Positions 16,983-51,127 of a DNA stretch of 51,148 nt are shown here, one piece after another. Location: positions 1 to 51,148 of the forward strand of contig DAICXL010000001.1 of the NCBI GenBank assembly GCA_027312185.1. Direction: 5' to 3'. Source of the stretch: Caulobacterales bacterium (GTDB taxonomy: Bacteria; Pseudomonadota; Alphaproteobacteria; Caulobacterales; Caulobacteraceae). Under the pieces are notes generated by a model that saw only the letters and a program-made list of their open reading frames with translations, was not told the DNA's origin and searched no databases. Position 1 is the stretch's first letter, and each line of letters opens with the position of its first letter. Position numbers and translations under genes: made by a program.

Positions 16983-17942
16983 TTACTGGGCCTTGTGCAC
17001 AACCGCCGCCTCCGGGGCGCTGAGGCCGAACGCCCCCTGGTCGCTCTCGCACCAGGACTGAAGGGCCGAGGCCATGCGCCAGGCCGGATCGGTCGGCGGC
17101 TCCGACTTGCGGGTGACCGCGTGCCAGTCGACATACAGCCCCTTGCGGGTGACCTTGGCCGAGGCCAGCACGCCTGAGCGCAGGTACTGGCTGACCGCCC
17201 AGCGCGACAGGATGCTGATCCCGAACCCCGCCGCCACCAGCTCGACGATGGCCTCGGTCAGCTCCACCTTCAGCAGCTTGCGATAGGTCACGTGCGCCGG
17301 CTTCAGGAAGCTGTCGTACTCGTGGCCCTTCTCTGCGACGTCGCTGTACGAGATATAGACCTGGTCGGCGAGATCCTGGGCGACCACGAAGGGCTTGGCG
17401 GCCAGCGGGTGATCCGGCGCCATGATCAGGATCAGCTCGTCGCGGAACAGGATCAGCGAGCGCGTCGCCGACTTGGCGGGCTTGCCCGATGTCACGGCGA
17501 TGTCGAGGTGGCGGTCGGTCAGGGCGGTCAGCGGTCGCTGGGTGGCGTCCGCCACCACCTCGATGTCGATGTCAGGATCGCTCTCCTGGAAGGCTCGCAT
17601 GAAGCGCGGCAGCCAGCGGTAGGCGCTGTAGGCCCCGCACCCGATCCGCACCACGTGACGCATCCCCTCCCCCGGGTTCTCCACCGCCCGCTCGGCCCGC
17701 TCCAGCTGGGCCAGGATGCGGCCGGCCTCTTCGTTGAGAATCTGCGCCGCCGGGGTCATCTGCATCTGCTTGTTCCCCTGCACGAAGAGGTCGAGCCCGA
17801 GCCGCCGCTCGGCCTCGCGGATCTGATGGCTCAGGGCCGACTGGGTCAGGTTCAGCAGGGCGGCCGATCGGGTGACGCTGCCGGTCAGGGCCATGGCCTG
17901 CAGCATGCGCAGGTGGCGCATCTCGAGCTTAGGCGGGCGCAT
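16983..17942 (-). CDS. LysR family transcriptional regulator
   Basis: MRHLRMLQAMALTGSVTRSAALLNLTQSALSHQIREAERRLGLDLF is the LysR wHTH. 319 aa. AGGAG RBS is present. Confidence 0.85.
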   Translation of the reverse strand: MRPPKLEMRHLRMLQAMALTGSVTRSAALLNLTQSALSHQIREAERRLGLDLFVQGNKQMQMTPAAQILNEEAGRILAQLERAERAVENPGEGMRHVVRIGCGAYSAYRWLPRFMRAFQESDPDIDIEVVADATQRPLTALTDRHLDIAVTSGKPAKSATRSLILFRDELILIMAPDHPLAAKPFVVAQDLADQVYISYSDVAEKGHEYDSFLKPAHVTYRKLLKVELTEAIVELVAAGFGISILSRWAVSQYLRSGVLASAKVTRKGLYVDWHAVTRKSEPPTDPAWRMASALQSWCESDQGAFGLSAPEAAVVHKAQ

Positions 17943-17982
17943 GGGCGCTCCTATGAACAGCTTTCATGGATCGTCTGAAACT

Positions 17983-18003
17983 TAGGAATTTTATTGATTC
18001 CTA
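17983..18003. promoter_or_regulatory. Candidate LysR-type operator: TAGGAAT-tttattg-ATTCCTA
   Basis: Perfect 7-7-7 dyad, 41-61 bp upstream of the LysR start codon, in the divergent LysR / ammonia-lyase-like spacer. Confidence 0.4.
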
Positions 18004-18246
18004 CCGGGCTCGTAGATTGGGGTCGGGGGCCGGCGAACGCAACGCGGTCCGCACCCTGGGATATCCTGGAGCCAAGGTGAGATCAGGCGCTGCGGCAAAA
18101 GAGGGCAGGACGTCGGCCATGACGAGCCAGGGCGCCCATGGATTCGGCCCAGATAAGCGCTACGCGGCCGCGGTCGGAGATCTCGCTGGCGAGCGCCACG
18201 GCGGCGGCCGATCTTCAGCTTCGCGATCTAACCAGATTTGGCCGAG

Positions 18247-19725
18247 ATGACCGTTTCCCTCAATACGCGCCAGGACATCAATCTGGACGCCCTCTACAGG
18301 GTGGCGTGGCAGGGCGAGGGCGTTCACCTGTCTCAAACCGTGCTTGGCCGCATCACGGCTTCCCGCCAGTCGTTCCTCGACCTGATCGACAACGACCCCA
18401 ACGTCGTCATCTACGGCGTCACTACAGCCATGGGCGAGTTCGCCAGCCTGCGCCTCTCCCATGAACAGCGCGACCGGCACTCCCGCATCAAACCCTTCCC
18501 CGCCGCGACCTCCTTCGGTGAAGACCTGCCCGAGCGCGTGGTCCGCGGCATGGTGCTGGCGCGGCTGGCCAATTTCATCGAGGGCCATGCCGCCACCTCG
18601 CCGCGCATCGCCATGGCCGTCGCCGGCATGCTGGACGGCGGCGCGCCCATGCCCCGGATCGCGTCCTGGGGTCACGGCGGCGCCGGCGAGATCCAGGCCC
18701 TCTATCCCCTCTTCGCAGAGCTCTCGACCCGGTTCGAGCTCGAAGTCCGCGAACGCGGCTCGCTGATCAACGGCTCGCCCTGCGCCGCCGCCCTGGTCGG
18801 CGACGCGGCCCTGGCGGCCCGGCGGCGCTATCAGACGGCGCTGAAGACCTTCGCCCTGTCCATCGAGGCCTTCCGCGCGCCCCTGGAGCACTACGACGCC
18901 GCGCTCGAGGGCCTGTGGGGCGACCCGAACGAGGCCGCCGCCCTGCGGGGCCTGCGCGAACTGCTGGTCGGCGCCGGCGACGGACGGCGCAACTACCAGG
19001 CTCCGGTCAGCTACCGCATCGCCCCCAAGGTGCTGGGTCAGGCCCACCGCGCCATGGTTCAGGCCGAACAGGCGGCGACGGTCTCCCTGTCCTCGATCTC
19101 CGACAATCCGGTGTATCTGCCGCCCGACAAGGAGCATCCGCTCGGCCGCTGCATCTCGACCGGCGGCTACCATAACGCCCTGGCCGCCCCGGCCCTGGAT
19201 GACCTCGCCGCCGTCTGGGCCGACCTGTGCCAGCTCTCCATGCGCCATTGCGTCAAGCTGCTCGACGGGCGCGCCTCGCACATGCCCGACATGCTGCTGG
19301 TCGGCAGAGAGCCGGGCGACAGCGACGGGCGCGGCAACGTCGGCTATCTGCCCTGGGCCATCGCCGGCTACATCGAGCAGGCCAAGGCCGCCGCCCAGAC
19401 CACCTTCATCCCCTCGACCGACACCGGCGGCGCCGGCCAGGACGACGTGGCGCCTCCCGCCTTCCTGGCCTTCACCAAGGAAGCGACCGCCGCCCGCTGC
19501 GTGGACGCCTCGCTGGCCATGCTGGCCGTGATCGCCGCCCAGGCCCTGCACATCACGAACCGCCAAGCCCCGCCGGCGCTGCGCGGCTTCATGGACATGA
19601 TCCACGGCGTTGTCCGCCCGGTCGTCGAGGACCGCGTCCTCGGCCCCGAACTGGCCAAACTCGCTCAAGTCTTCACCGACGAGGCCTTCGCCGCGGACCG
19701 GCCGCTGGAACAGGCGGTCGCCTAG
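18247..19725 (+). CDS. Aromatic amino acid ammonia-lyase (HAL/PAL/TAL) family homolog lacking the Ala-Ser-Gly MIO triad
   Basis: Family motifs: YGVTTAMGEF (cf. YGxNTGFG), SLINGSP (cf. LLNGT), QAPVSYRIAPKVLG (cf. QDPYSLRCxPQVxG), SDNPV, TGGYHNA (cf. GGNFHAEP). The triad position reads G-A-G (nt 18679-18687). The longest ORF starts at TTG 18238; the first ATG is 18247. Confidence 0.8.
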   Translation: MTVSLNTRQDINLDALYRVAWQGEGVHLSQTVLGRITASRQSFLDLIDNDPNVVIYGVTTAMGEFASLRLSHEQRDRHSRIKPFPAATSFGEDLPERVVRGMVLARLANFIEGHAATSPRIAMAVAGMLDGGAPMPRIASWGHGGAGEIQALYPLFAELSTRFELEVRERGSLINGSPCAAALVGDAALAARRRYQTALKTFALSIEAFRAPLEHYDAALEGLWGDPNEAAALRGLRELLVGAGDGRRNYQAPVSYRIAPKVLGQAHRAMVQAEQAATVSLSSISDNPVYLPPDKEHPLGRCISTGGYHNALAAPALDDLAAVWADLCQLSMRHCVKLLDGRASHMPDMLLVGREPGDSDGRGNVGYLPWAIAGYIEQAKAAAQTTFIPSTDTGGAGQDDVAPPAFLAFTKEATAARCVDASLAMLAVIAAQALHITNRQAPPALRGFMDMIHGVVRPVVEDRVLGPELAKLAQVFTDEAFAADRPLEQAVA

Positions 19726-19764: not shown

Positions 19765-21729
19765 CTACAACTCCCCCACCGGAATGTGGCACCGGATCTC
19801 GTGTCCCGGCTCAGCCCCCGGCAGCATCGGCGGCTCCTGCTGCTCGCAGATCGGGCCCAGCTTCCTCGGACACCGTGTGTGGAAGACGCATCCGCCGGGC
19901 AAGTCGATAGCGCTGGGGATCTCGCCCTCCAGCCGCACCCGCGCGGCTGTGCCCTCCAGCGACGGGGCGGCCGACAGCAGGGCGGCGGTGTAGGGGTGGT
20001 GCGGGCCTGAGAACACCCGCTCGGACGGCCCGGTCTCCATCAGCCGGCCGAGATAGAGGACGGCGATGCGGTCCGACAGGTAGCGCACCGTCGCCAGGTC
20101 GTGGCTGATGAACAGATAGGCGACGCCCTCGCGCGCCTGCAGCTCGGCCAGCAAATTGAGGATCGCGGCCTGCACCGACACGTCGAGGGCCGAGGTCGGC
20201 TCGTCACAGACCACGATGCGCGGCCCGCCCGCGAAGGCCCGCGCAATGGCGACGCGCTGCTTCAGCCCGCCGGACAGCTGGGTCGCCCGCCGCTCCAGAT
20301 AGCGATCGGCGAGCTGGACCGAGCGGGTCAGGGCCAACAGCCGGGCGGGCAACTCCGCCCTGGGAACCCCGCCCAGCCGGGCCATCACCCGGCCGATCAG
20401 GCGGCGCACGCTGTGCGACCGGTTCAGCGCCGAGTCCGGGTTCTGGAAGACGATCTGCAGAGCCTTGAGCTGATCGCGCCGCCGTTTGGGGCCGAGAGCC
20501 TGGCCGTCCAGCTCCAGCAGGCCGCCTGGATCGGGAGCGACGAGGCCCAGGAGCAGCCGCGCCAGGGTGGTCTTGCCGCTGCCGGATTCCCCGACCAGCC
20601 CCAGGGTCTCGCCCGCCCGCAGGTCGAACGAAACCTCGTGCACGGCGCGGACGGGGCGCCCCGCGCCGCCGAAAGTCTTCGACAGCCGCGCCTTCAGGAT
20701 CGGCGCGCCCCGCTGGAACGGGACCGCCAGGTCGGCAGGGGTGGCGCGCGGCGTGGTCGGGGCCAGCTCCGGATAGTGGCAGCGGCTCAGCCGGCCTGCG
20801 CCCAGGTCGTGCAAGGGCGGCGGCTGGGTGCGGCAGAGGTCCGTGGCCAGGCCGCAGCGCGGGGCGAAGACGCAAGGGGAAACCGCCTCCCCCGCCGCCG
20901 GGGGAAAGCCCGGAATGGTGTCGAGCCGGCCGTGGTCCTTGCGGGCGCCGGGCCGCACCAGGCAGCGCATCAGAAGGGCGGTGTAGGGATGGCGCGGGCT
21001 GGCGAAGACTTCGCGCGTCGGCCCCTCCTCGACCAGGGTCCCGGCGTAGAGCACGCCGACGCGGTCGCACATGGCCGCCACCACCGCGAGGTTGTGGCTG
21101 ATGAACAGCAGGGCCATCCCGCGCTCGGCGCGGATGTCGGCCACCAGCTCCAGGATCTCGGCCTCGACCGTGGCGTCGAGGCCCGTGGTCGGCTCGTCGA
21201 GGATCAGCAGCTTCGATTCGGTCGCCAGGGCCATGGCGATGGCCACCCGCTGCTGCATGCCGCCGGACAGCAGGTGGGGATAGCGGTCGGCCACGGCGGC
21301 AGGGTCGGCGATCCGCACCCGGGCCAGCATCGCCACCGCCCGCGCCATGGCCTCGGCCGGCGCCAGGCCCTGCAGGCGGAAGATCTCGGCGATCTGCTCT
21401 CCGACCCGGATCGACGGGTTCAGCGCCCGGCCCGGGTCCTGATAGACCATCGAGACGTCCGTGGCCCGCAGACGGCGCAACCCCTCGGGGTCGAGGTCGT
21501 AGAGGTCGCGCCCCCCGACCAGGACCCGCCCGTCCGTCACCCGGCCGTTGGGCGGCAGATAGCGTACCGCCGCCAGGGCGACGCTCGACTTGCCCGAGCC
21601 GGATTCCCCGACCAGGCCATAGGACTCTCCGGCCGCGATGCTCAGGCTCAGCCCCCGCAGCACGGGCAGGTCCCGGCCGCGGACCCGGTAGGCGAGCTCC
21701 AGCGCCTCGAGCGACAGCGCCGCCGTCAT
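19765..21729 (-). CDS. ABC transporter ATP-binding protein, fused double ATPase (DppD/DppF-like)
   Basis: Two Walker A motifs (GESGSGKS, GESGSGKT), two LSGG signatures (LLSGGMQQRV, LSGGLKQRV) and two Walker B motifs (LLILDEPT, IVVCDEPT). ATG 21729 overlaps the upstream permease stop (ATGA). Confidence 0.85.
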   Translation of the reverse strand: MTAALSLEALELAYRVRGRDLPVLRGLSLSIAAGESYGLVGESGSGKSSVALAAVRYLPPNGRVTDGRVLVGGRDLYDLDPEGLRRLRATDVSMVYQDPGRALNPSIRVGEQIAEIFRLQGLAPAEAMARAVAMLARVRIADPAAVADRYPHLLSGGMQQRVAIAMALATESKLLILDEPTTGLDATVEAEILELVADIRAERGMALLFISHNLAVVAAMCDRVGVLYAGTLVEEGPTREVFASPRHPYTALLMRCLVRPGARKDHGRLDTIPGFPPAAGEAVSPCVFAPRCGLATDLCRTQPPPLHDLGAGRLSRCHYPELAPTTPRATPADLAVPFQRGAPILKARLSKTFGGAGRPVRAVHEVSFDLRAGETLGLVGESGSGKTTLARLLLGLVAPDPGGLLELDGQALGPKRRRDQLKALQIVFQNPDSALNRSHSVRRLIGRVMARLGGVPRAELPARLLALTRSVQLADRYLERRATQLSGGLKQRVAIARAFAGGPRIVVCDEPTSALDVSVQAAILNLLAELQAREGVAYLFISHDLATVRYLSDRIAVLYLGRLMETGPSERVFSGPHHPYTAALLSAAPSLEGTAARVRLEGEIPSAIDLPGGCVFHTRCPRKLGPICEQQEPPMLPGAEPGHEIRCHIPVGEL

Positions 21730-22556
21730 GACGCCAGGGCCTCCTGCACCCCGTCGGCGACGAGGTTGACCCCGATCACCAGCGAGGCGATCGCCGCGGC
21801 GTTGGCCAGCACGATCCACCATACCCCGCCGCTGAGCAGCCCGTAGTTCTCCGAGATGGCCAGGCCCCAGTCCGGAGAGGGCGGCTGGATGCCGAAGCCC
21901 ATGAAGCTGAGCGTCGCCACCGTGAAGACGGCGTAGCCGAGGCGCACCGTGGCCTCGACCAGGATCGGCGGGACGATGTTGGGCAGGATCTCGACGAACA
22001 GGATGTAACCGCCCCCCTCGCCCCGCAAACGGGCGGCGGCGACGTAGTCGAGGGCGCTTTCGGTCAGGACGGCGGCGCGGACGGTGCGCGCGATCAAGGG
22101 CGCGTAGATGACGCCGATCACCACGATCACCGTCGCGGTCGAGGGGCCGAGCGCCGCCAAGGCCAGCAGGGCGATGATCACCATCGGCAGGGCCAAAAGG
22201 GCGTCGATCACGCGGCTGACCGTCGCGTCGGCAAAGCCGCGGAAATAGCCGGTCACCAGGCCCAGGATCACGCCGCCCGCCACGCCGACCGCCGTGGCCA
22301 GGGGCGCGACCACCAGGATGTCCCGCGCGCCGACGATGACACGGCTGAACACGTCGCGGCCGAGCTGGTCGGTCCCGAACCAGTGCCCTCCCGACGGCGG
22401 GGCGAGGGCGGCGATGATGTCGGTCGCCAAGGGGTCGTGAGGGACCAGCATCGGCCCGAACAGGGCGCAGCCGATCCAGAACAGGATGATCGCCGCCCCC
22501 GCGACGACGGTCTTGGACCGCAGCAGTTGCTGAAGCCGCTCGCGCCCAGGGCTCAC
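21726..22556 (-). CDS. ABC transporter permease (DppC/OppC-like)
   Basis: GTG 22556 overlaps the stop of the upstream permease (GTGA). Motifs HWFGTDQLGRDVFSRV and the EAA-loop region AAARLRGEGGGYILFVEILPN are present. Confidence 0.85.
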   Translation of the reverse strand: MSPGRERLQQLLRSKTVVAGAAIILFWIGCALFGPMLVPHDPLATDIIAALAPPSGGHWFGTDQLGRDVFSRVIVGARDILVVAPLATAVGVAGGVILGLVTGYFRGFADATVSRVIDALLALPMVIIALLALAALGPSTATVIVVIGVIYAPLIARTVRAAVLTESALDYVAAARLRGEGGGYILFVEILPNIVPPILVEATVRLGYAVFTVATLSFMGFGIQPPSPDWGLAISENYGLLSGGVWWIVLANAAAIASLVIGVNLVADGVQEALAS

Positions 22557-23515
22557 GCGCCCGCTCCGTGGCGGATGCGCGGGTTCAGCCAGGCCGACAG
22601 CACGTCGGCCACCAGGGCGGCGGCGGCGTAGATCAGCCCCACCGTCAGCACCCCGGCCTGGAGGACCGGGAAGTCCTTCTGCTGGGCCGCCTTGAAGATC
22701 AGGCTGCCGATGCCCTGGTAGCGGAACAGGATCTCGATCACGACCAAGCCCCCGATCAGGGTGCCGAGCTGGGTGGCGATGACGGTGATGGTGGGCAGCA
22801 GGGCGTTGCGCAGCACGTGGCGCCAGATCACGGCCTGGCGCGGCAGGCCCTTGAGCACGGCGGTGCGGGTGTAGTCGGCCGCCAGCACGTCCAGCACCCC
22901 GGCCCGCACCATCCGCGCCAGATAGCCGAACAGGGCCAGCACCAGCGGCAGGGACGGCAGAAGCAGGTAGCGCAGTTGCGTCAGGGGCCCGGCGCCGGGG
23001 GGCCAGTCGGCGCTGATCGGCAGCACCTTCAGCCACACCCCGAAGATCAGGATCAGCACGATGCCGGTGACGAACTCCGGCAGCACCGTCGCCGACAGGC
23101 CGACCAGGCTGACGACGCGGTCGACGGCCCGCCCCGCATGCAGCGCCGCCCACACCCCGGCGGCGATGCTGAGCGGCACGACCAGCACGAAGGCGACGGC
23201 GCCGAGCTTCAGGGAATGGCCGAGGGCCGCGGCGATGATCGGCCCGACCGGCGTGCGGAAGGCGTAGGACACCCCCATATCGCCGCGTACGAAGCCGCCG
23301 ATCCAGTCCAGGTATTGGGTCAGCAGCGGCCGATCGAGGCCGTACTGCTGGTTGAACGTATCGACCGCGCGCTGATCGGCCAGCGGCCCCAGCATGGCGC
23401 GGGCCGCGTCCCCGGGCAGCAGCTGGCCGCCGACGAAGACGATGACGCTGAGCAGCCACAGGGTGACCAGGGTCAGGCCGAGCCGCTTGAGGAGGATGCC
23501 GAAAAAGCCCGTCAT
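22553..23515 (-). CDS. ABC transporter permease (DppB/OppB-like)
   Basis: N-terminus ILLKRLGLTLVTLWLLSVIVF and EAA-loop YTRTAVLKGLPRQAVIWRHVLRNALLP. 320 aa. Confidence 0.85.
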   Translation of the reverse strand: MTGFFGILLKRLGLTLVTLWLLSVIVFVGGQLLPGDAARAMLGPLADQRAVDTFNQQYGLDRPLLTQYLDWIGGFVRGDMGVSYAFRTPVGPIIAAALGHSLKLGAVAFVLVVPLSIAAGVWAALHAGRAVDRVVSLVGLSATVLPEFVTGIVLILIFGVWLKVLPISADWPPGAGPLTQLRYLLLPSLPLVLALFGYLARMVRAGVLDVLAADYTRTAVLKGLPRQAVIWRHVLRNALLPTITVIATQLGTLIGGLVVIEILFRYQGIGSLIFKAAQQKDFPVLQAGVLTVGLIYAAAALVADVLSAWLNPRIRHGAGA

Positions 23516-23667: not shown

Positions 23668-24507
23668 TCAGTAGTACCCGTGGGACGAGGCCGAGATGGG
23701 CCTCCCCTGCTCCACCCCGTCGATCACCACCTTGTCGACGAACTCGTCGTAGAAGCTGACCAGCCCCTTGATGCGGGCCGCCTCGTGCACCGGGTCGGGG
23801 TAGTACCAGACCACGTTCTCGTGCCGCTTCCCGCCGACCTCGAGGTGATAGTAGCTGGCGATCCCCTTGTAGGGGCAGCGCGAGATGTAGCGGCTGGGCC
23901 GGAACATATCGAGCCGGGTGTCGGCGATCGGCATATAGATGCGGGTGTTCAGCCCGGTCTCGAACAGGAAGGTGGCGCGGCGGGTGTCGGCCACCTTCTC
24001 GCCGCCCAAATAGACCTCGACATGCCGCGAGGACGGCAGGGTGTCGATGCGCCGGTACGGATCGCGGGCGTGGACGAAGACCTCCTCGTCCTCCTCGTAC
24101 CAGTGGTTCATCTTGTTCCAGTAGAAGGCCATGTAGCCCTCGATCGGCGGGCAGCCCTCCACCGGCTCCAGATAGCGCCAGCCGGCGTCCTCCACGAGGG
24201 TGACGCCTGTGTTCAGGGAGTAGTGCGTGGCGACGCCCTTGAACGGCGACTCCGTCTTGGTCGAGGAGCTCATCAGGAACTCCTCGCGCACGTCCTTCAT
24301 CGGGAAATAGTACACCGGCAGGTGATCGGACTCGTACATGACGAGCCCTTCGATGGTGTCGGCGACGAAGATGTCGCCCACCTTGATGCGCAGCCGCTTG
24401 GGGCTCGGCATCATGAAGACGACATAGCCCGGCTCGGCCTCGTACTGCACGACGCGGTCGAGAATGGGGAAGTGCGGCCCGCGGCCGCGCAGGTGGGCTT
24501 TGCGCAT
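23668..24507 (-). CDS. Tandem DUF427 domain protein (two DUF427 repeats)
   Basis: Repeat 2: SSRHVEVYLGGEKVADTRRATFLFETGLNTRIYMPIADTRLDMF...CPYKGIASYY...GLVSFYDEFVDKVVIDG. Repeat 1: KRLRIKVGDIFVADT...LPVYYFPMKDV...SPFKGVATHY...YMAFYWNKMNHWYEEDEEVF. The start lies 2 nt after the binding-protein stop. Confidence 0.7.
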   Translation of the reverse strand: MRKAHLRGRGPHFPILDRVVQYEAEPGYVVFMMPSPKRLRIKVGDIFVADTIEGLVMYESDHLPVYYFPMKDVREEFLMSSSTKTESPFKGVATHYSLNTGVTLVEDAGWRYLEPVEGCPPIEGYMAFYWNKMNHWYEEDEEVFVHARDPYRRIDTLPSSRHVEVYLGGEKVADTRRATFLFETGLNTRIYMPIADTRLDMFRPSRYISRCPYKGIASYYHLEVGGKRHENVVWYYPDPVHEAARIKGLVSFYDEFVDKVVIDGVEQGRPISASSHGYY

Positions 24508-24509
24508 GG

Positions 24510-26168
24510 TCAGCTCCGGGTGACGCGGTCGAGCAGGAGGCCGGCGGCGATGGGCGGCAGGCCGGTGATCCCCTTGCGCACGGGCACGAGCAGGTTGGGG
24601 AAATAGCTGATGATCACCGGCGTCTCGTCCAGCAGCAGCCGCTGGATGTCGCCCGCTGCGGCGCGCTGGGCCGCTGGATCGAGGGCGCGGGTGTAGCGCG
24701 CCACCAGGGCGTCATAGGCAGGGCTCTTGAAGTGGGCCGCGTTCCAGGCCCCGTCGCTGCGCAGGGGATTGCCGAGGGCGACGTCCGGCGTGGCCCGGTG
24801 GGCGTAATCGGTGATGCCGAATTCGCTGTCCAGCCAGTCGGACTGGCCGGGGACCGACTTGCCATAGTACTGGCCCTGGCTCTCCACCTTCAGGGCGATG
24901 CGCACGCCGATGGCCTTGGCCTGGTCCTGGATCAGCTGGGCGTACTGGGCGATGTCCGAGTACTGCATCGCCGTCAGGGTCACGTCGAAGCCGCCGGCCT
25001 TGCCGGCGTCGGCCATCAGCTGCCTGGCCTTGGCGATATCCTGGGTCCGCTGCGGCACGGCCGGGTCGGTGGACGGGTAGAACGACCCGAACGGGCTGTC
25101 GTTTCCGATGGTCGCCATGCCGTGGCACAGGCCGTCCACCAGAGTCTTGCGGTCAAGACACAGGGCCAGCGCCTGGCGCACCCGCTTGTCGGCGAAGGGG
25201 CCCGTGTCGCACTTCATGTGCACCTGGCGATGGCTGGCCGACTGCACGCGGATCAGCTCGATGGCGGGATTGCGCTGCAGGCTGGGGGCCAGGACGATCG
25301 GCACGGCGTCGAGGATATCGACCTCGCCCGCCTGCAGGGCGAGCAGGCGCGGCTGCGGCTCGGCGTAGAACTTGAACTCGATGCGGTCCGGCAGGGCCTT
25401 GTCGCCCCAGTACTCCGGGTTGCGCACCAGGCTGGCCCCGACCCGCGGCCGGTACGCCTCCATCCGGAACGGGCCGGTTCCGATGAAGCTGGCCTCATAG
25501 TTCCCGGCGTATGTCGCCGGCAGGATCACCGCATTGTAGTTGTCGATCGACACCGCGTACGGGAAGTTCCCGTTCGGGGCGTCGAGGTGGAAGGCCACCG
25601 TATAGTCGTCGACCTTGCGGCACCCGCCCTTGGACAGGACGCCCTTGAACACCGACAGGGCGTTGGATCCACCCTTGGGGTCCGACAGCCGATCGAAGGT
25701 GGCGACCACGTCGGCGGCTGTCATCACCTGGCCGTCGTGGAACTTCACCCCCCTGCGCAGCTTGAAGGTCCACACCGATCCGTCGGTGTTGGGGCTCCAG
25801 CTCTCGGCCAGCACCGGCTTGAGGGTCAGGTCCGGCTGGGTGACGCAGAGGAATTCGGCGGTCTGGAAGAACAGCTGGTAGCTGCCGCTGTCGTGGACCG
25901 TGACCGGATCGACGGCGCCGACCGGCACGGCGATCCCAGCGGTGATGGTCCCGCCCGGCTTGCCGCCCTGGGGGGCCGCCGCCTGCTGGGGCCCGTCGCC
26001 GCACGCCGCCAGCCCGCCCAGCAACGGCAGGCCGAGGCCGAGGACGCTGCCCGCGCGCAGGAAGGCGCGGCGGTCGAGCCGGCCGCTCAGCCACTCGTCG
26101 ACGAGGGCGTTCCCCGCCCCGCCCAGCCCGGCCCGGGCGCCGTCGATCAGCCTGTGGTCAGCGCCCAT
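24510..26168 (-). CDS. ABC transporter substrate-binding protein, family 5 (DppA/OppA-like), TAT-exported
   Basis: Twin-arginine signal LDRRAFLRAGSVLGLGLPLLGGLAACG. 552 aa. It is the first gene of the minus-strand operon 26168->19765. Confidence 0.85.
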   Translation of the reverse strand: MGADHRLIDGARAGLGGAGNALVDEWLSGRLDRRAFLRAGSVLGLGLPLLGGLAACGDGPQQAAAPQGGKPGGTITAGIAVPVGAVDPVTVHDSGSYQLFFQTAEFLCVTQPDLTLKPVLAESWSPNTDGSVWTFKLRRGVKFHDGQVMTAADVVATFDRLSDPKGGSNALSVFKGVLSKGGCRKVDDYTVAFHLDAPNGNFPYAVSIDNYNAVILPATYAGNYEASFIGTGPFRMEAYRPRVGASLVRNPEYWGDKALPDRIEFKFYAEPQPRLLALQAGEVDILDAVPIVLAPSLQRNPAIELIRVQSASHRQVHMKCDTGPFADKRVRQALALCLDRKTLVDGLCHGMATIGNDSPFGSFYPSTDPAVPQRTQDIAKARQLMADAGKAGGFDVTLTAMQYSDIAQYAQLIQDQAKAIGVRIALKVESQGQYYGKSVPGQSDWLDSEFGITDYAHRATPDVALGNPLRSDGAWNAAHFKSPAYDALVARYTRALDPAAQRAAAGDIQRLLLDETPVIISYFPNLLVPVRKGITGLPPIAAGLLLDRVTRS

Positions 26169-50063: not shown

Positions 50064-50558
50064 GTGAATGGACGGATGACCGACCCCCGCCCCGACCTGT
50101 GGACCTTCGCCGTCGCCGCCTATGCCGAGGCCGGCGACGCGTGCCTGGCCCTGCAGGACGGGTACGGCGTGGACGTCCCCCTGCTGCTGTTCGCCGCCTG
50201 GATCGGGCAGGCCCGGGGCGTCCCCCTGGACGCCGCCCGCGTCGCCGAGGCCGACGGCTGGATCCGCGACTGGCGCCGCGAGGTGGTCCAGCCCCTGCGC
50301 GCCGTGCGCCGCCGGCTCAAGGACGCCGGCGCCGAGACCCTGCGGGCGACGGTGAAGACGGCCGAACTCGAGAGCGAGCGCGTCGCCCTGTCGATCCTCG
50401 AGCAACGGTCGGCGGGCTGGACCGGCGCCGCGACCGATGCGGTGGGCGGGAACCTCGACGCGGTGTTCGCCTTCGCCACCCGGCACGGGGCGGAGCCGGA
50501 ATCGAAGGGCCTGCTGTCCGCCGTGGCCGCCGCGGCGCGGCCGAAGGCGGCGGCCTGA
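50064..50558 (+). CDS. TIGR02444/DUF2390-like conserved hypothetical protein
   Basis: LWTFAVAAYAEAGDACLALQDGYGVDVPLLLFAAWIG matches my recollection of this family's N-terminal signature. GTG 50064 lies 8 nt after GAGGGG. ATG 50076 is the alternative start. Confidence 0.55.
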   Translation: MNGRMTDPRPDLWTFAVAAYAEAGDACLALQDGYGVDVPLLLFAAWIGQARGVPLDAARVAEADGWIRDWRREVVQPLRAVRRRLKDAGAETLRATVKTAELESERVALSILEQRSAGWTGAATDAVGGNLDAVFAFATRHGAEPESKGLLSAVAAAARPKAAA

Positions 50559-51127
50559 TGCGCCGGCTGATCGTCGCCATCACCGGAGCCTCCGGCGCCA
50601 TCTATGGCGTGCGGGCCCTGCAGTTGCTCCGCGACGTTGCCGACGTCGAGACCCACCTCGTCATGTCGCCGGCCGCGATCCAGACCGCCCAGGCCGAGCT
50701 CGCCATGGAGGCGCAAGCCGTCCGCGACCTCGCCGACGTGGTGCATGGCTACAAGGACATCGGCGCCTCGATCGCTTCGGGATCGTTCAAGACCACCGGC
50801 CTGCTGGCGGCGCCCTGTTCGGTGAAGACCCTGTCGGGGATCGCCCACTGCTACGACCAGGACCTGATCGTCCGCGCCGCCGACGTCTGTCTGAAGGAGC
50901 GTCGGCGGGTCGTGCTGCTGTTCCGGGAGACGCCCCTGCACGCGGGGCACATCGCCCTGATGGACCAGGCCACCCGCAACGGGGCCGTGGTCATGCCCCC
51001 CGTGCCCGCCTTCTACCACCGGCCGACCACCATCGAGGAAATCGTCGACCAGACCGTGGCCCGCGCCCTCGACCTGTTCGACATCGAACTGCCGACCCTG
51101 AAGCGCTGGAAGGACGCCTCCGACTAA
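50558..51127 (+). CDS. ubiX: Flavin prenyltransferase UbiX
   Basis: MRRLIVAITGASGAIYGVRALQLL...HLVMS..A......E...., APCS.KTLSGIAHCY.DLI.RAADV.LKERR.VVL..RETPL. The ATG overlaps the preceding stop (TGATG). Confidence 0.9.
   Translation: MRRLIVAITGASGAIYGVRALQLLRDVADVETHLVMSPAAIQTAQAELAMEAQAVRDLADVVHGYKDIGASIASGSFKTTGLLAAPCSVKTLSGIAHCYDQDLIVRAADVCLKERRRVVLLFRETPLHAGHIALMDQATRNGAVVMPPVPAFYHRPTTIEEIVDQTVARALDLFDIELPTLKRWKDASD

Follow-up and report, generated by a model that had tools for sequence, protein, structure and literature searches.

The window, by which the whole analysed stretch of 51,148 nt is meant, encodes a HAL/PAL-fold protein, P0001, which lacks the MIO-forming triad. With a probability of roughly one half, P0001 is predicted from conserved residues and gene neighbourhoods to be an active MIO-independent C-N lyase whose substrate is a betaine-type amino acid taken up by the cell. 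The gene and the codons of its diagnostic residues are as follows:

18247–19725, plus strand: MIO-less HAL/PAL-fold lyase P0001, 492 aa (PF00221, AF2 model, and homologs)
18412–18414, plus strand: codon of Tyr56, which corresponds to the catalytic base Tyr53 in HAL of P. putida
18679–18687, plus strand: codons of G145-A146-G147, at the position of the MIO-forming Ala-Ser-Gly (alignments with HutH and with Ala-Ser-Gly-bearing members)
19006–19017, plus strand: codons of V254-S255-Y256-R257, with Val for HAL Tyr280 and Arg257 for the carboxylate-binding Arg283

The open reading frame was translated into 492 residues with no internal stops, and all motifs that a preceding sequence-only reading had listed for the product (YGVTTAMGEF, SLINGSP, QAPVSYRIAPKVLG, SDNPV, and TGGYHNA) were found. 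In the Pfam profile search, P0001 matched PF00221 with 178 bits and an E-value of 3.5e-52 (cut-off 27.3); its homology to this family is therefore far above chance, and the protein belongs to the PF00221 superfamily. The AF2 model, a structural check suggested by the same reading, had a mean pLDDT of 93.3 and comprised the full HAL fold. Foldseek TM-scores of the model ranged from 0.81 to 0.87 against HAL, TAL, TAM, and ergothionase; the value was 0.87 for both P. putida HAL and ergothionase 6s7j, so the fold search was uninformative for telling a HAL-like from an ergothionase-like protein. The 120 orthologs share 67–89% identity with P0001. P0001 and its homologs align from residue 1, and thus an N-terminal leader is not apparent. 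The gene is a singleton in the window, with no tandem pair.

Where MIO enzymes carry an (Ala/Thr/Ser/Cys)-Ser-Gly triad, P0001 has Gly-Ala-Gly. As claimed from the sequence alone, GGAGEI spans residues 144–149 (nt 18676–18693), with the triad-equivalent codons at 18679–18687. The loop from P-x-V-P to E/D is one residue shorter in P0001 than in HutH, which makes a HAL-only alignment ambiguous by one position. The true Ala-Ser-Gly of the family members P0132, P0141, and P0143 falls exactly in the columns of G145-A146-G147, which supports the register assumed earlier, and Ser is absent in either register. Residue 146 is Ala in 111, Ser in 5, and Pro in 4 of the 120 orthologs, in all of which G145, G147, and E148 are invariant. 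Only the three members named above have Ala-Ser-Gly among the 75 aligned family sequences (65 representatives and 10 orthologs), and in the tree they are scattered within the clade and are not basal. The proposed survey of Gly-Ala-Gly variants thus revealed a family-wide loss of the triad, and the statement that a canonical MIO cannot form holds, with Ala clade-wide and Pro in relatives at the Ser position.

Tyr56 lies in a region that aligns with the HAL motif YG(V/I)NTGFG and corresponds to the lid-loop Tyr53 of MIO lyases; it is invariant in the 120 orthologs and present in 57 of the 65 family representatives. This Tyr and the carboxylate binders Asn/Gln/Arg/Asn are nearly invariant clade-wide among members that are only 30–50% identical. 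The sequence-only reading had offered two possibilities, a non-lyase such as a binding protein or a different mechanism; the near-invariance of these residues makes the former unlikely, while the latter is likely. P0001 combines the features of MIO-independent trimethylammonia-lyases, namely the PF00221 fold without the triad and with the Tyr and carboxylate binders. At the position of Tyr280 in HAL and Tyr351 in PAL, it has Val254, which is invariant in the orthologs and is Val in 55 of the 65 representatives; the clade signature is QAPVS(Y/F/W)R. The imidazole binders His83 and Glu414 of HAL (His117/Glu467 of Swoo_3913) are Ala86 and Asp399 in P0001 by alignment through HAL, both invariant in the 120 orthologs; given the variable length of the loop near residue 86, the equivalence to His83 is less certain than that to Glu414. 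Because the imidazole-binding residues are replaced, the substrate may not be hercynine or ergothioneine. A deletion of about 27 residues follows the triad loop in the P0001 clade. The segment GYLPWAIAGY, located about 28 residues before Asp399, contains no Lys; by the HAL alignment it would correspond to the region of ergothionase Lys384. The specificity positions 85, 86, 62, and 399 are fixed inside the orthogroup and variable between subfamilies, a pattern which, as read from the alignments, is that of enzymes sharing one chemistry but acting on many substrates.

The P0001 clade is monophyletic with respect to canonical HutH, and appears in the tree as a separate, long-branched group. P0001 scored 152 bits against TIGR01225 (cut-off 539) and 158 bits against NF006871 (cut-off 524); with these scores and without His83/Glu414, it falls outside the HutH equivalog. 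The database names 'histidine ammonia-lyase' and 'aromatic amino acid lyase' are almost certainly wrong for this branch. The family profile gave 190 bits for HAL (7tqr), 171 for TAL, and 112 for ergothionase 6s7j, and by these scores the clade is not closer to characterised trimethylammonia-lyases than to MIO enzymes. The clade may therefore have lost MIO independently of ergothionase, in which case the same leaving group need not follow. At 50% identity, 211 cluster representatives were obtained at E ≤ 1e-30, including some fragments. The distribution is patchy: the lyase was detected in 15 of 401 sampled genomes of the class, one small genome has up to 11 tandem copies of the family, and some relatives form tandem paralog arrays (L011, L040, and L042). 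Cultured carriers of the family include Rhizobium tropici CIAT 899, R. jaguaris, and many Mesorhizobium species; the orthologs of the first two share 90.6% identity. A separate, exported, and truly ergothionase-like homolog with a GEGD motif is encoded in the same genome as the lyase. The hutH model was unmatched at E ≤ 1e-100 in the window's own assembly, which is 59% complete.

The divergent LysR gene and the convergent Opp/Dpp-type ABC operon with a tandem DUF427 gene are present as the sequence-only reading described them:

16983–17942, minus strand: divergent LysR-family regulator (HTH_1 and LysR_substrate)
17983–18003, no strand assigned: perfect dyad TAGGAAT-N7-ATTCCTA, candidate LysR operator (sequence reading)
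19765–21729, minus strand: fused double ABC ATPase, DppD-DppF/GsiA-like (two ABC_tran and two oligo_HPY domains; predicted ATG start at 21729)
21726–22556, minus strand: ABC permease of the OppC/DppC type (OppC_N and BPD_transp_1; predicted GTG start at 22556)
22553–23515, minus strand: ABC permease of the OppB/DppB type (NCBIfam Opp/Nik/Gsi permease models)
23668–24507, minus strand: tandem DUF427 protein within the importer operon (PF04248 twice)
24510–26168, minus strand: family-5 (Opp/Dpp-type) substrate-binding protein, first gene of the importer operon (SBP_bac_5, 273 bits)

The stop codons of the ATPase and lyase genes are 39 nt apart. In L007, L045, and L046, LysR orthologs (72–76% identity) adjoin the lyase or the ABC genes, and in L059 gene calling likewise gave a divergent LysR gene at this position. 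The dyad occurs in a single copy in the window and is largely conserved at the same place in the ortholog locus L059. A riboswitch in the 300-nt leader was rejected, since none of the 4227 Rfam families matched positions 17800–18400 at E ≤ 1. Orthologs of the binding protein (53–58% identity) adjoin the lyase in L006, L007, L045, L046, and L047; those of the OppB/DppB-type permease and the ATPase share 64–67% and 59–63% identity, respectively. Searches of NCBIfam and PDB sequences gave no specific equivalog that would indicate the ligand of the binding protein, which had generic family-5 matches only (nickel, glutathione, peptide, and agrocinopine), far below the cut-offs.

The LysR gene and the Opp-type importer are kept with the lyase in 9 of 12 ortholog loci. 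Orthologous Opp-type ABC genes are found beside the lyase in the window, L006, L007/L008, L045, L046, and L047, by called genes also in L058 and L059, and partly in L044; in L007 and L046, the lyase is inside the transporter operon. This survey of neighbours, suggested earlier, showed an ABC operon conserved with the lyase, in some genomes as one operon, and the ABC operon is thus no chance neighbour. The genomic context supports an active catabolic enzyme. The tandem DUF427 gene occupies the same position in L058, L059, and about 26 other genomes, and its distant relatives occur in clusters with Mo-hydroxylases, aldolases, and enoyl-CoA hydratases. EgtU/OpuC-type quaternary-amine (OpuAC) importers, for which Lmo1422 and the ergothioneine-binding EgtUC domain are the closest natural relatives of solved structure, directly adjoin family lyases in R. 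jaguaris (L048) and L059; betaine-type importers were found beside family lyases in these two loci only and are absent in R. tropici CIAT 899. UbiD/UbiX genes adjoin the lyase in L006, L047, L048, L057, and L036, representing at least three lineages and a minority of the loci, and the genome from which the window comes carries a UbiD ortholog (73%) at another location. A search with the UbiD query hit 7 of the 401 class genomes at E ≤ 1e-60, only 2 of them among the 15 lyase-positive ones; two shared genomes being too few, genome-wide co-occurrence was discarded as evidence.

Several other candidate partners were rejected. The bicupin, SDR, amidohydrolase, 446-aa unknown, and DUF6152 genes of the window are not kept beside orthologs, one weak DUF6152 match being the sole exception among the window neighbours tested. 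A supposed trimethylamine monooxygenase beside the L044 ortholog is a 452-aa flavoprotein without a solved relative and found no support. The FAD_binding_2 protein that sits after the operon in L007, considered as an enoate reductase, had weak matches only to the FAD-binding ends of fumarate/urocanate reductases and is absent from the sister locus L046.

In the proposed mechanism, the substrate would be imported by the adjoining Opp-type ABC system under the control of the divergent LysR regulator, and its carboxylate would be held by Asn175, Gln251, Arg257, and Asn287. Tyr56 on the mobile loop would remove the beta-proton, and the alpha-substituent, already a good leaving group and most likely trimethylammonium as in amino-acid betaines, would depart without an electrophilic cofactor, yielding a free amine and an alpha,beta-unsaturated acid. 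Where a prenylated-flavin UbiD/UbiX decarboxylase is encoded next to the lyase, as in several lineages, this acid would probably be handed on to it. Against a betaine substrate, the importer in the window is of the peptide/opine/nickel type and not of the betaine type, and the equivalents of His83/Glu414, kept in known trimethylammonia-lyases, are replaced. Searches of the literature for hypaphorine lyases and for UbiD with ammonia-lyases yielded nothing.

More tentatively, and at less than even odds, HAL-fold lyases without a cofactor might have evolved a second time, independently, in this clade, with betaines other than those of histidine or further N-substituted amino acids as substrates. 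Along with an Opp- or EgtU-type importer, DUF427, and a prenylated-flavin UbiD, the clade could then constitute an undescribed route of import, amine elimination to an acrylate-type acid, and decarboxylation, which would give DUF427 its first functional setting. If trimethylamine or related amines are indeed released from plant, fungal, or algal betaines, volatile methylamines of soil and water would have an unrecognised source in this clade, and such betaines an unrecognised route of use as nitrogen or carbon sources. The links to UbiD/UbiX and DUF427 offer concrete, testable partners for two families with often unknown substrates.

A different reaction on the HAL scaffold is an unlikely alternative to betaine cleavage. 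P0001 might eliminate another leaving group (for example, dimethylamine or an N-acyl, N-hydroxy, or O-linked group), hydrate or isomerise an unsaturated acid, or catalyse the reverse addition. In favour of this, the clade forms a deep branch apart from ergothionase and carries a deletion and a QAPVS(Y/F/W)R signature of its own, its importer type is known for peptides, opines, and metal chelates, and the clusters of DUF427 relatives point to heteroaromatic or organic-acid catabolism rather than to betaines. However, trimethylamine elimination is the only precedent for MIO-less PF00221 enzymes (bioRxiv 10.1101/2025.08.13.670108; 10.64898/2026.04.22.720169), and betaine-type importers flank family members twice. 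It is slightly less probable again that P0001 is simply an ergothionase or a histidine-betaine (hercynine) trimethylammonia-lyase feeding a route from (thio)urocanate to hydantoin-propionate. The R. jaguaris ortholog, placed between an EgtU-like importer and a hydantoinase-like amidohydrolase (nearest solved relative L-hydantoinase 1gkr) with an M20 peptidase, speaks for such a route. In Burkholderia sp. HME13, the hydantoinase-like and M20 families reportedly perform the last two steps of ergothioneine breakdown. In addition, an ergothionase-type enzyme of Agrobacterium radiobacter is mentioned as characterised in the citing text (ref. 43 in PMC13405746). Yet the other loci tested had no homologs of the hydantoinase-like and M20 genes of L006 or L048 adjoining the lyase, and no urocanase-like gene was present in the Pfam-annotated loci. 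The invariant Ala86/Asp399 in place of the imidazole binders, the segment presumed to match Lys384 but devoid of Lys, the low similarity to 6s7j (17% identity, 112 profile bits), and the GEGD-bearing ergothionase-like homolog in the same genome also argue against this assignment.

The loss of both the cofactor and Tyr280 would suit a pseudoenzyme without catalytic activity, or a subunit with a ligand-binding or regulatory role, and inactive partner subunits are conceivable in the tandem arrays L011, L040, and L042. This is very improbable for P0001, given that the catalytic Tyr, Asn, Gln, Arg, and Asn remain nearly invariant at 30–50% clade identity, the gene in the window has no tandem partner, and the operon position with the transporter is conserved. 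Hardly any weight is left for an ammonia-lyase or aminomutase that still acts on a free amino acid through another electrophile or a Gly-Ala-Gly-derived ring. Gly-Ser-Gly in 5 of 120 orthologs and Ala-Ser-Gly in 3 of 75 family sequences suggest that ring formation may be possible in a few members, but the exocyclic methylidene cannot come from a central Ala or Pro, MIO enzymes are inactive after Ser-to-Ala replacement, as in RxPAL S153A (PMC3903478), and the Ala-Ser-Gly members do not take a basal position.

The best-scoring solved relatives of the proposed MIO-independent C-N lyase by profile and fold are the HutH proteins (P. putida 1gkm/1b8f; TIGR01225), with which P0001 is collinear over the whole length; unlike them, it lacks the MIO triad, Tyr280, and His83/Glu414 and has a 27-residue deletion. 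For the transporter type of the window, the Opp-like Prb system of Sinorhizobium meliloti sets a precedent as an importer of an amino-acid betaine, namely proline betaine (PMC1595395, as cited in PMC11337228); the likeness is one of transporter type, and Prb, unlike the importer in the window, is not known to be linked to a lyase. A MIO-less class of PF00221 has been described, comprising ergothionase and histidine-betaine trimethylammonia-lyases, and all its characterised enzymes are trimethylammonia-lyases (bioRxiv 10.1101/2025.08.13.670108; 10.64898/2026.04.22.720169); they dispense with MIO because trimethylamine is a good leaving group. Ergothionase (Treponema denticola 6s7j; Burkholderia sp. 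HME13) resembles P0001 in the PF00221 fold without Ala-Ser-Gly (TM-score 0.87 at 17% identity), in the retained catalytic Tyr and carboxylate-binding residues, and in the replacement of HAL Tyr280 by an aliphatic residue with an aromatic one two positions later (QDPLSFR in 6s7j, QAPVSYR in P0001). It differs in having a GEGD loop and in keeping the hairpin after the loop and the Ser-His of HAL, whereas P0001 has a GGAGE loop, about 27 residues fewer after it, Pro-Ala for Ser-His, and Asp for Glu414. The Shewanella lyases Swoo_3913, SO_3057, and SO_3299 are MIO-deficient PF00221 proteins that require a trimethylammonium leaving group, their substrates being histidine-betaine and N(pi)-methyl-histidine-betaine (bioRxiv 10.1101/2025.08.13.670108; 10.64898/2026.04.22.720169). 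They are periplasmic, are coupled to flavocytochrome c reductases in anaerobic respiration, and have retained both imidazole binders, His and Glu, whereas P0001 lacks these binders and an apparent leader and is associated with an ABC importer and, in some lineages, with UbiD/UbiX. Since MIO-less PF00221 enzymes are already known, the P0001 clade is a new, uncharacterised branch of a known kind and not a new principle.

The gene under study spans an uninterrupted frame of 492 codons and has a GC3 of 0.91, as usual for coding sequence (window GC, 69%). Its product, P0001, matched Pfam PF00221 (Lyase_aromatic) with 178 bits (E 3.5e-52) and scored far below the curated cut-offs of the histidine ammonia-lyase models TIGR01225 (152 bits; cut-off, 539) and NF006871 (158 bits; cut-off, 524). 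All motifs quoted in the sequence-only reading were found in the translation, with GGAGEI at residues 144-149. The AlphaFold model was confident (mean pLDDT 93.3, pTM 0.93) and superposed alike on HAL and ergothionase (TM 0.87 each). The window features considered here are as follows.

17943-18246, 304-nt spacer upstream of the lyase gene
17983-18003, perfect LysR-type dyad inside the spacer
18247-19725 (+), lyase-family gene encoding P0001
23668-24507 (-), tandem DUF427 gene
50099-51127 (+), 342-aa ORF with a UbiX-type flavoprotein domain (PF02441, residues 156-324)

P0001 was aligned to canonical HutH proteins from related genomes, and HutH GSVGASGDLAPLAH was aligned with P0001 GH-GGAGEIQALYP. 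Because the P0001 loop is one residue shorter, alignment to HAL alone leaves the register uncertain by one position. In three members of the P0001 family (P0132, P0141, and P0143), a genuine Ala-Ser-Gly occupies exactly the columns of P0001 G145-A146-G147, which settles the register in favor of the triad assigned from the sequence alone. The P0001 triad contains no Ser in whichever register, and the feature is real. A word-indexed search with P0001 retrieved 120 orthologs (67-89% identity), in which G142, G144, G145, G147, and E148 were invariant and position 146 was Ala (111), Ser (5), or Pro (4). An exhaustive search against representatives of clusters formed at 50% identity yielded 211 proteins at E <= 1e-30. 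The family alignment comprised 75 sequences (65 full-length representatives and 10 close orthologs), with the triads GAG (24), GPG (10), AAG (7), GSG (6), EPG (5), and other variants; ASG was found in 3/75. Several family members have Gly-Ser-Gly or Ser-Ser-Gly at this position. The maximum-likelihood tree with a HutH root showed the family as a single long-branched clade, within which the ASG members P0132, P0141, and P0143 were nested and scattered rather than basal. About 27 residues following the HAL MIO loop were absent from the whole clade. Judged from these alignments, the triad loss is a family trait and not a lesion.

Active-site residues were mapped by HMMER alignments of P0001 to T. 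acidophilum and T. cruzi HAL. The mapping relied on the known roles of the P. putida HAL residues, in part as given in the Shewanella lyase papers.

Active-site positions of HAL, their P0001 counterparts, and conservation
HAL Tyr53 (base): P0001 Tyr56, kept in 120/120 orthologs and 57/65 representatives
HAL Asn195: P0001 Asn175, kept in 57/65 representatives
HAL Gln277: P0001 Gln251, kept in 59/65 representatives
HAL Arg283: P0001 Arg257, kept in 61/65 representatives
HAL Asn313: P0001 Asn287, kept in 59/65 representatives
HAL Tyr280: P0001 Val254, Val in 55/65 representatives
HAL Leu282: P0001 Tyr256, Tyr/Phe/Trp in 58/65 representatives
HAL Ser82-His83: P0001 Pro85-Ala86, constant within the orthogroup, varying family-wide
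HAL Glu414: P0001 Asp399, constant within the orthogroup, varying family-wide

Constant chemistry residues together with subfamily-specific pocket residues are the pattern expected if the family is enzymatically active and its substrates have diversified.

The neighborhood proposed earlier, a divergent LysR gene and a convergent ABC operon with a DUF427 gene, was read in the same arrangement from the window genes. LysR lies on one flank of the lyase gene, and the importer operon ends convergently 39 nt away on the other, with the order SBP_bac_5, tandem DUF427, two permeases, and a fused double ATPase as the last gene. The spacer also holds a GC-rich leader of ~240 nt. The dyad is largely conserved in L059, the locus of an 82% ortholog. 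Conservation of the spacer extends over its LysR-proximal part in L059 and, to a lesser degree, in L045, and the spacer gave no Rfam match. ABC genes 53-68% identical to those of the window accompany the lyase in L006, L007/L008, L045, L046, and L047 and partly in L044, and the same gene order was judged from called genes in L058 and L059. In L007 and L046, LysR is followed by a co-directional block of permease, permease, ATPase, lyase, and binding protein, and the binding-protein gene overlaps the lyase stop in L006, L007, L046, and L047. No such Opp-type importer adjoins the lyase orthologs of Mesorhizobium (L005) or Rhizobium (L048 and L057). A 2.7-Mb genome (G103) carries 11 lyase-family paralogs, with tandem arrays of six and five (L040:565-10973 and L042:7520-14859); after the second array come the genes of an Opp-type ABC importer whose ATPase is fused. 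A tandem pair of family lyases occurs in L011.

Importers of another type adjoin some orthologs. A 68% ortholog on Rhizobium jaguaris pRCCGE525c has three same-strand genes behind it, which encode a ProV-like ATPase, a permease, and an OpuAC binding protein. In L059 (3405-9834, - strand), the operon that begins with the divergent LysR gene also encodes a fused OpuAC-permease, another permease, an ATPase, a second MIO-less lyase, and a single DUF427 protein. This second lyase (GSIGTSDL, without the triad Gly) is unrelated to the first and 26% identical to P0001. Beyond the operon lie a CMD-family gene and genes for nitrile hydratase subunits. For both OpuAC proteins, the closest natural proteins of solved structure were Lmo1422 and the EgtUC domain, which binds ergothioneine; ProX/OpuCC-type proteins ranked next. 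A precedent among Opp-type importers is S. meliloti Prb, which transports proline betaine (PMC1595395, as cited in PMC11337228). On these grounds a betaine-type compound is our best guess for the substrate, although for the window's own copy they bear on it only indirectly.

The tandem DUF427 gene is a constant part of the Opp-type operon (the window, L060-L082, and L090). This operon, with all parts at ~70% identity, was found in 22 Mesorhizobium genomes, a Rhizobiales isolate, a Woeseia MAG, and two other gammaproteobacterial MAGs, and a Dongiaceae MAG contig carried only DUF427 and the binding-protein gene. No lyase gene was adjacent to the DUF427-Opp operon in any of those Mesorhizobium, Rhizobiales, gammaproteobacterial, and Dongiaceae loci. 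A 70-71% lyase ortholog was present elsewhere in the genome in 3/5 tested DUF427-operon genomes (two of these three are Mesorhizobium and hence not independent); for comparison, the lyase family occurred in 15/401 sampled genomes of the class. DUF427 stands alongside the second lyase in L059, and two Acidimicrobiales contigs (L126 and L131) combine it with both an Opp importer and a lyase of the family. In six further loci (L091, L094, L097, L107, L127, and L132), it lies within ~5 kb of a UbiD gene, directly upstream in five. Distant tandem-DUF427 genes (43-51% identity; L083-L139) occur near xanthine-dehydrogenase-type molybdenum hydroxylases in 14 loci and also beside SDR, HpcH-type aldolase, enoyl-CoA hydratase, and MarR regulator genes, neighbors that hint at heteroaromatic-acid catabolism. 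The fold of DUF427 is a beta-tent, and the domain has no known function (PMC4287342).

UbiD and UbiX genes are divergent from the lyase in L006 and L047 and adjoin it in R. jaguaris (L048) and R. tropici CIAT 899 (L057); in L036, UbiD/UbiX lie directly upstream of a 49% paralog, co-directional with it and separated by 3 nt. The nearest solved relative of this UbiD was HmfF, a furan-dicarboxylate decarboxylase (238 bits). A 73% UbiD ortholog with a flavin reductase gene next to it was found on another contig of the window's own assembly (C186:21265-22626 (-); L050:13257-14702), 785 bases from the contig end in an assembly 59% complete, so pathway linkage there cannot be judged. The UbiX-type part of the window's 342-aa ORF, 31 kb from P0001 at the window's end, was 61% identical to the UbiX beside the lyase in L047; this ORF is probably a housekeeping prenyltransferase. 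Alpha,beta-unsaturated acids are among the substrates of Fdc1 and other prenylated-flavin decarboxylases. A lyase of the HAL fold yields such an acid, which a UbiD decarboxylase could then process; this putative coupling is chemically sensible. A hydantoinase-like amidohydrolase adjoins the lyase in L006 and R. jaguaris, with an M20 peptidase alongside in the latter; in R. tropici CIAT 899, the M20 gene is reduced to a 77-residue remnant. Downstream of the R. tropici ortholog (L057:8666-15207, pRtrCIAT899c) lie genes for a luciferase-like monooxygenase, an acyl-CoA-dehydrogenase-type protein, a MetN-like ATPase, and an NlpA/MetQ-type lipoprotein. Organosulfur scavenging typically involves such a combination. 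Taken in pairs, the associations among lyase, importer, DUF427, and UbiD are suggestive of a single pathway but do not prove it.

From its lack of a canonical MIO, P0001 had been read as either a non-lyase or an enzyme of different mechanism. This dilemma is answered in principle, since a class of MIO-less PF00221 lyases is already established: ergothionase and the Shewanella histidine-betaine and N(pi)-methyl-histidine-betaine trimethylammonia-lyases, in which, according to their authors, MIO is dispensable because trimethylamine leaves far more readily than ammonia, and all related MIO-deficient lyases require the trimethylamino group (bioRxiv 10.64898/2026.04.22.720169; 10.1101/2025.08.13.670108). 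The principle of a cofactor-less HAL-fold lyase is thus already published; within the literature searched, no publication was found on the present clade, its pocket, its importer, or its UbiD/DUF427 partners. P0001 is most likely an active MIO-independent C-N lyase of a large uncharacterised branch, acting on an imported betaine-like amino acid, a reading to which we give about even odds (roughly 0.5).

The same assembly encodes a second MIO-less PF00221 protein (C214:9077-10549 (-); L001:1351-3324, - strand) in an ORF of 657 aa, whose domain starts at about residue 111 after a long extension resembling an export signal. It has TLGEGDL at the MIO site, with GEGD as in T. denticola ergothionase, its best solved match (91 bits), and its predicted function is probably that of an exported ergothionase-type betaine lyase. 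In the alignment, GEGD of T. denticola ergothionase falls at the MIO site, whereas its Tyr280 region is QDPLSFR; ergothionase shares with the P0001 clade an aliphatic residue in place of HAL Tyr280 and an aromatic residue two positions later. The P0001 family profile scored 190 bits against HAL, 171 against TAL, and only 112 against ergothionase, and the imidazole binders kept by the known betaine lyases are absent from P0001. By these sequence comparisons, P0001 is not close to the known MIO-less betaine lyases.
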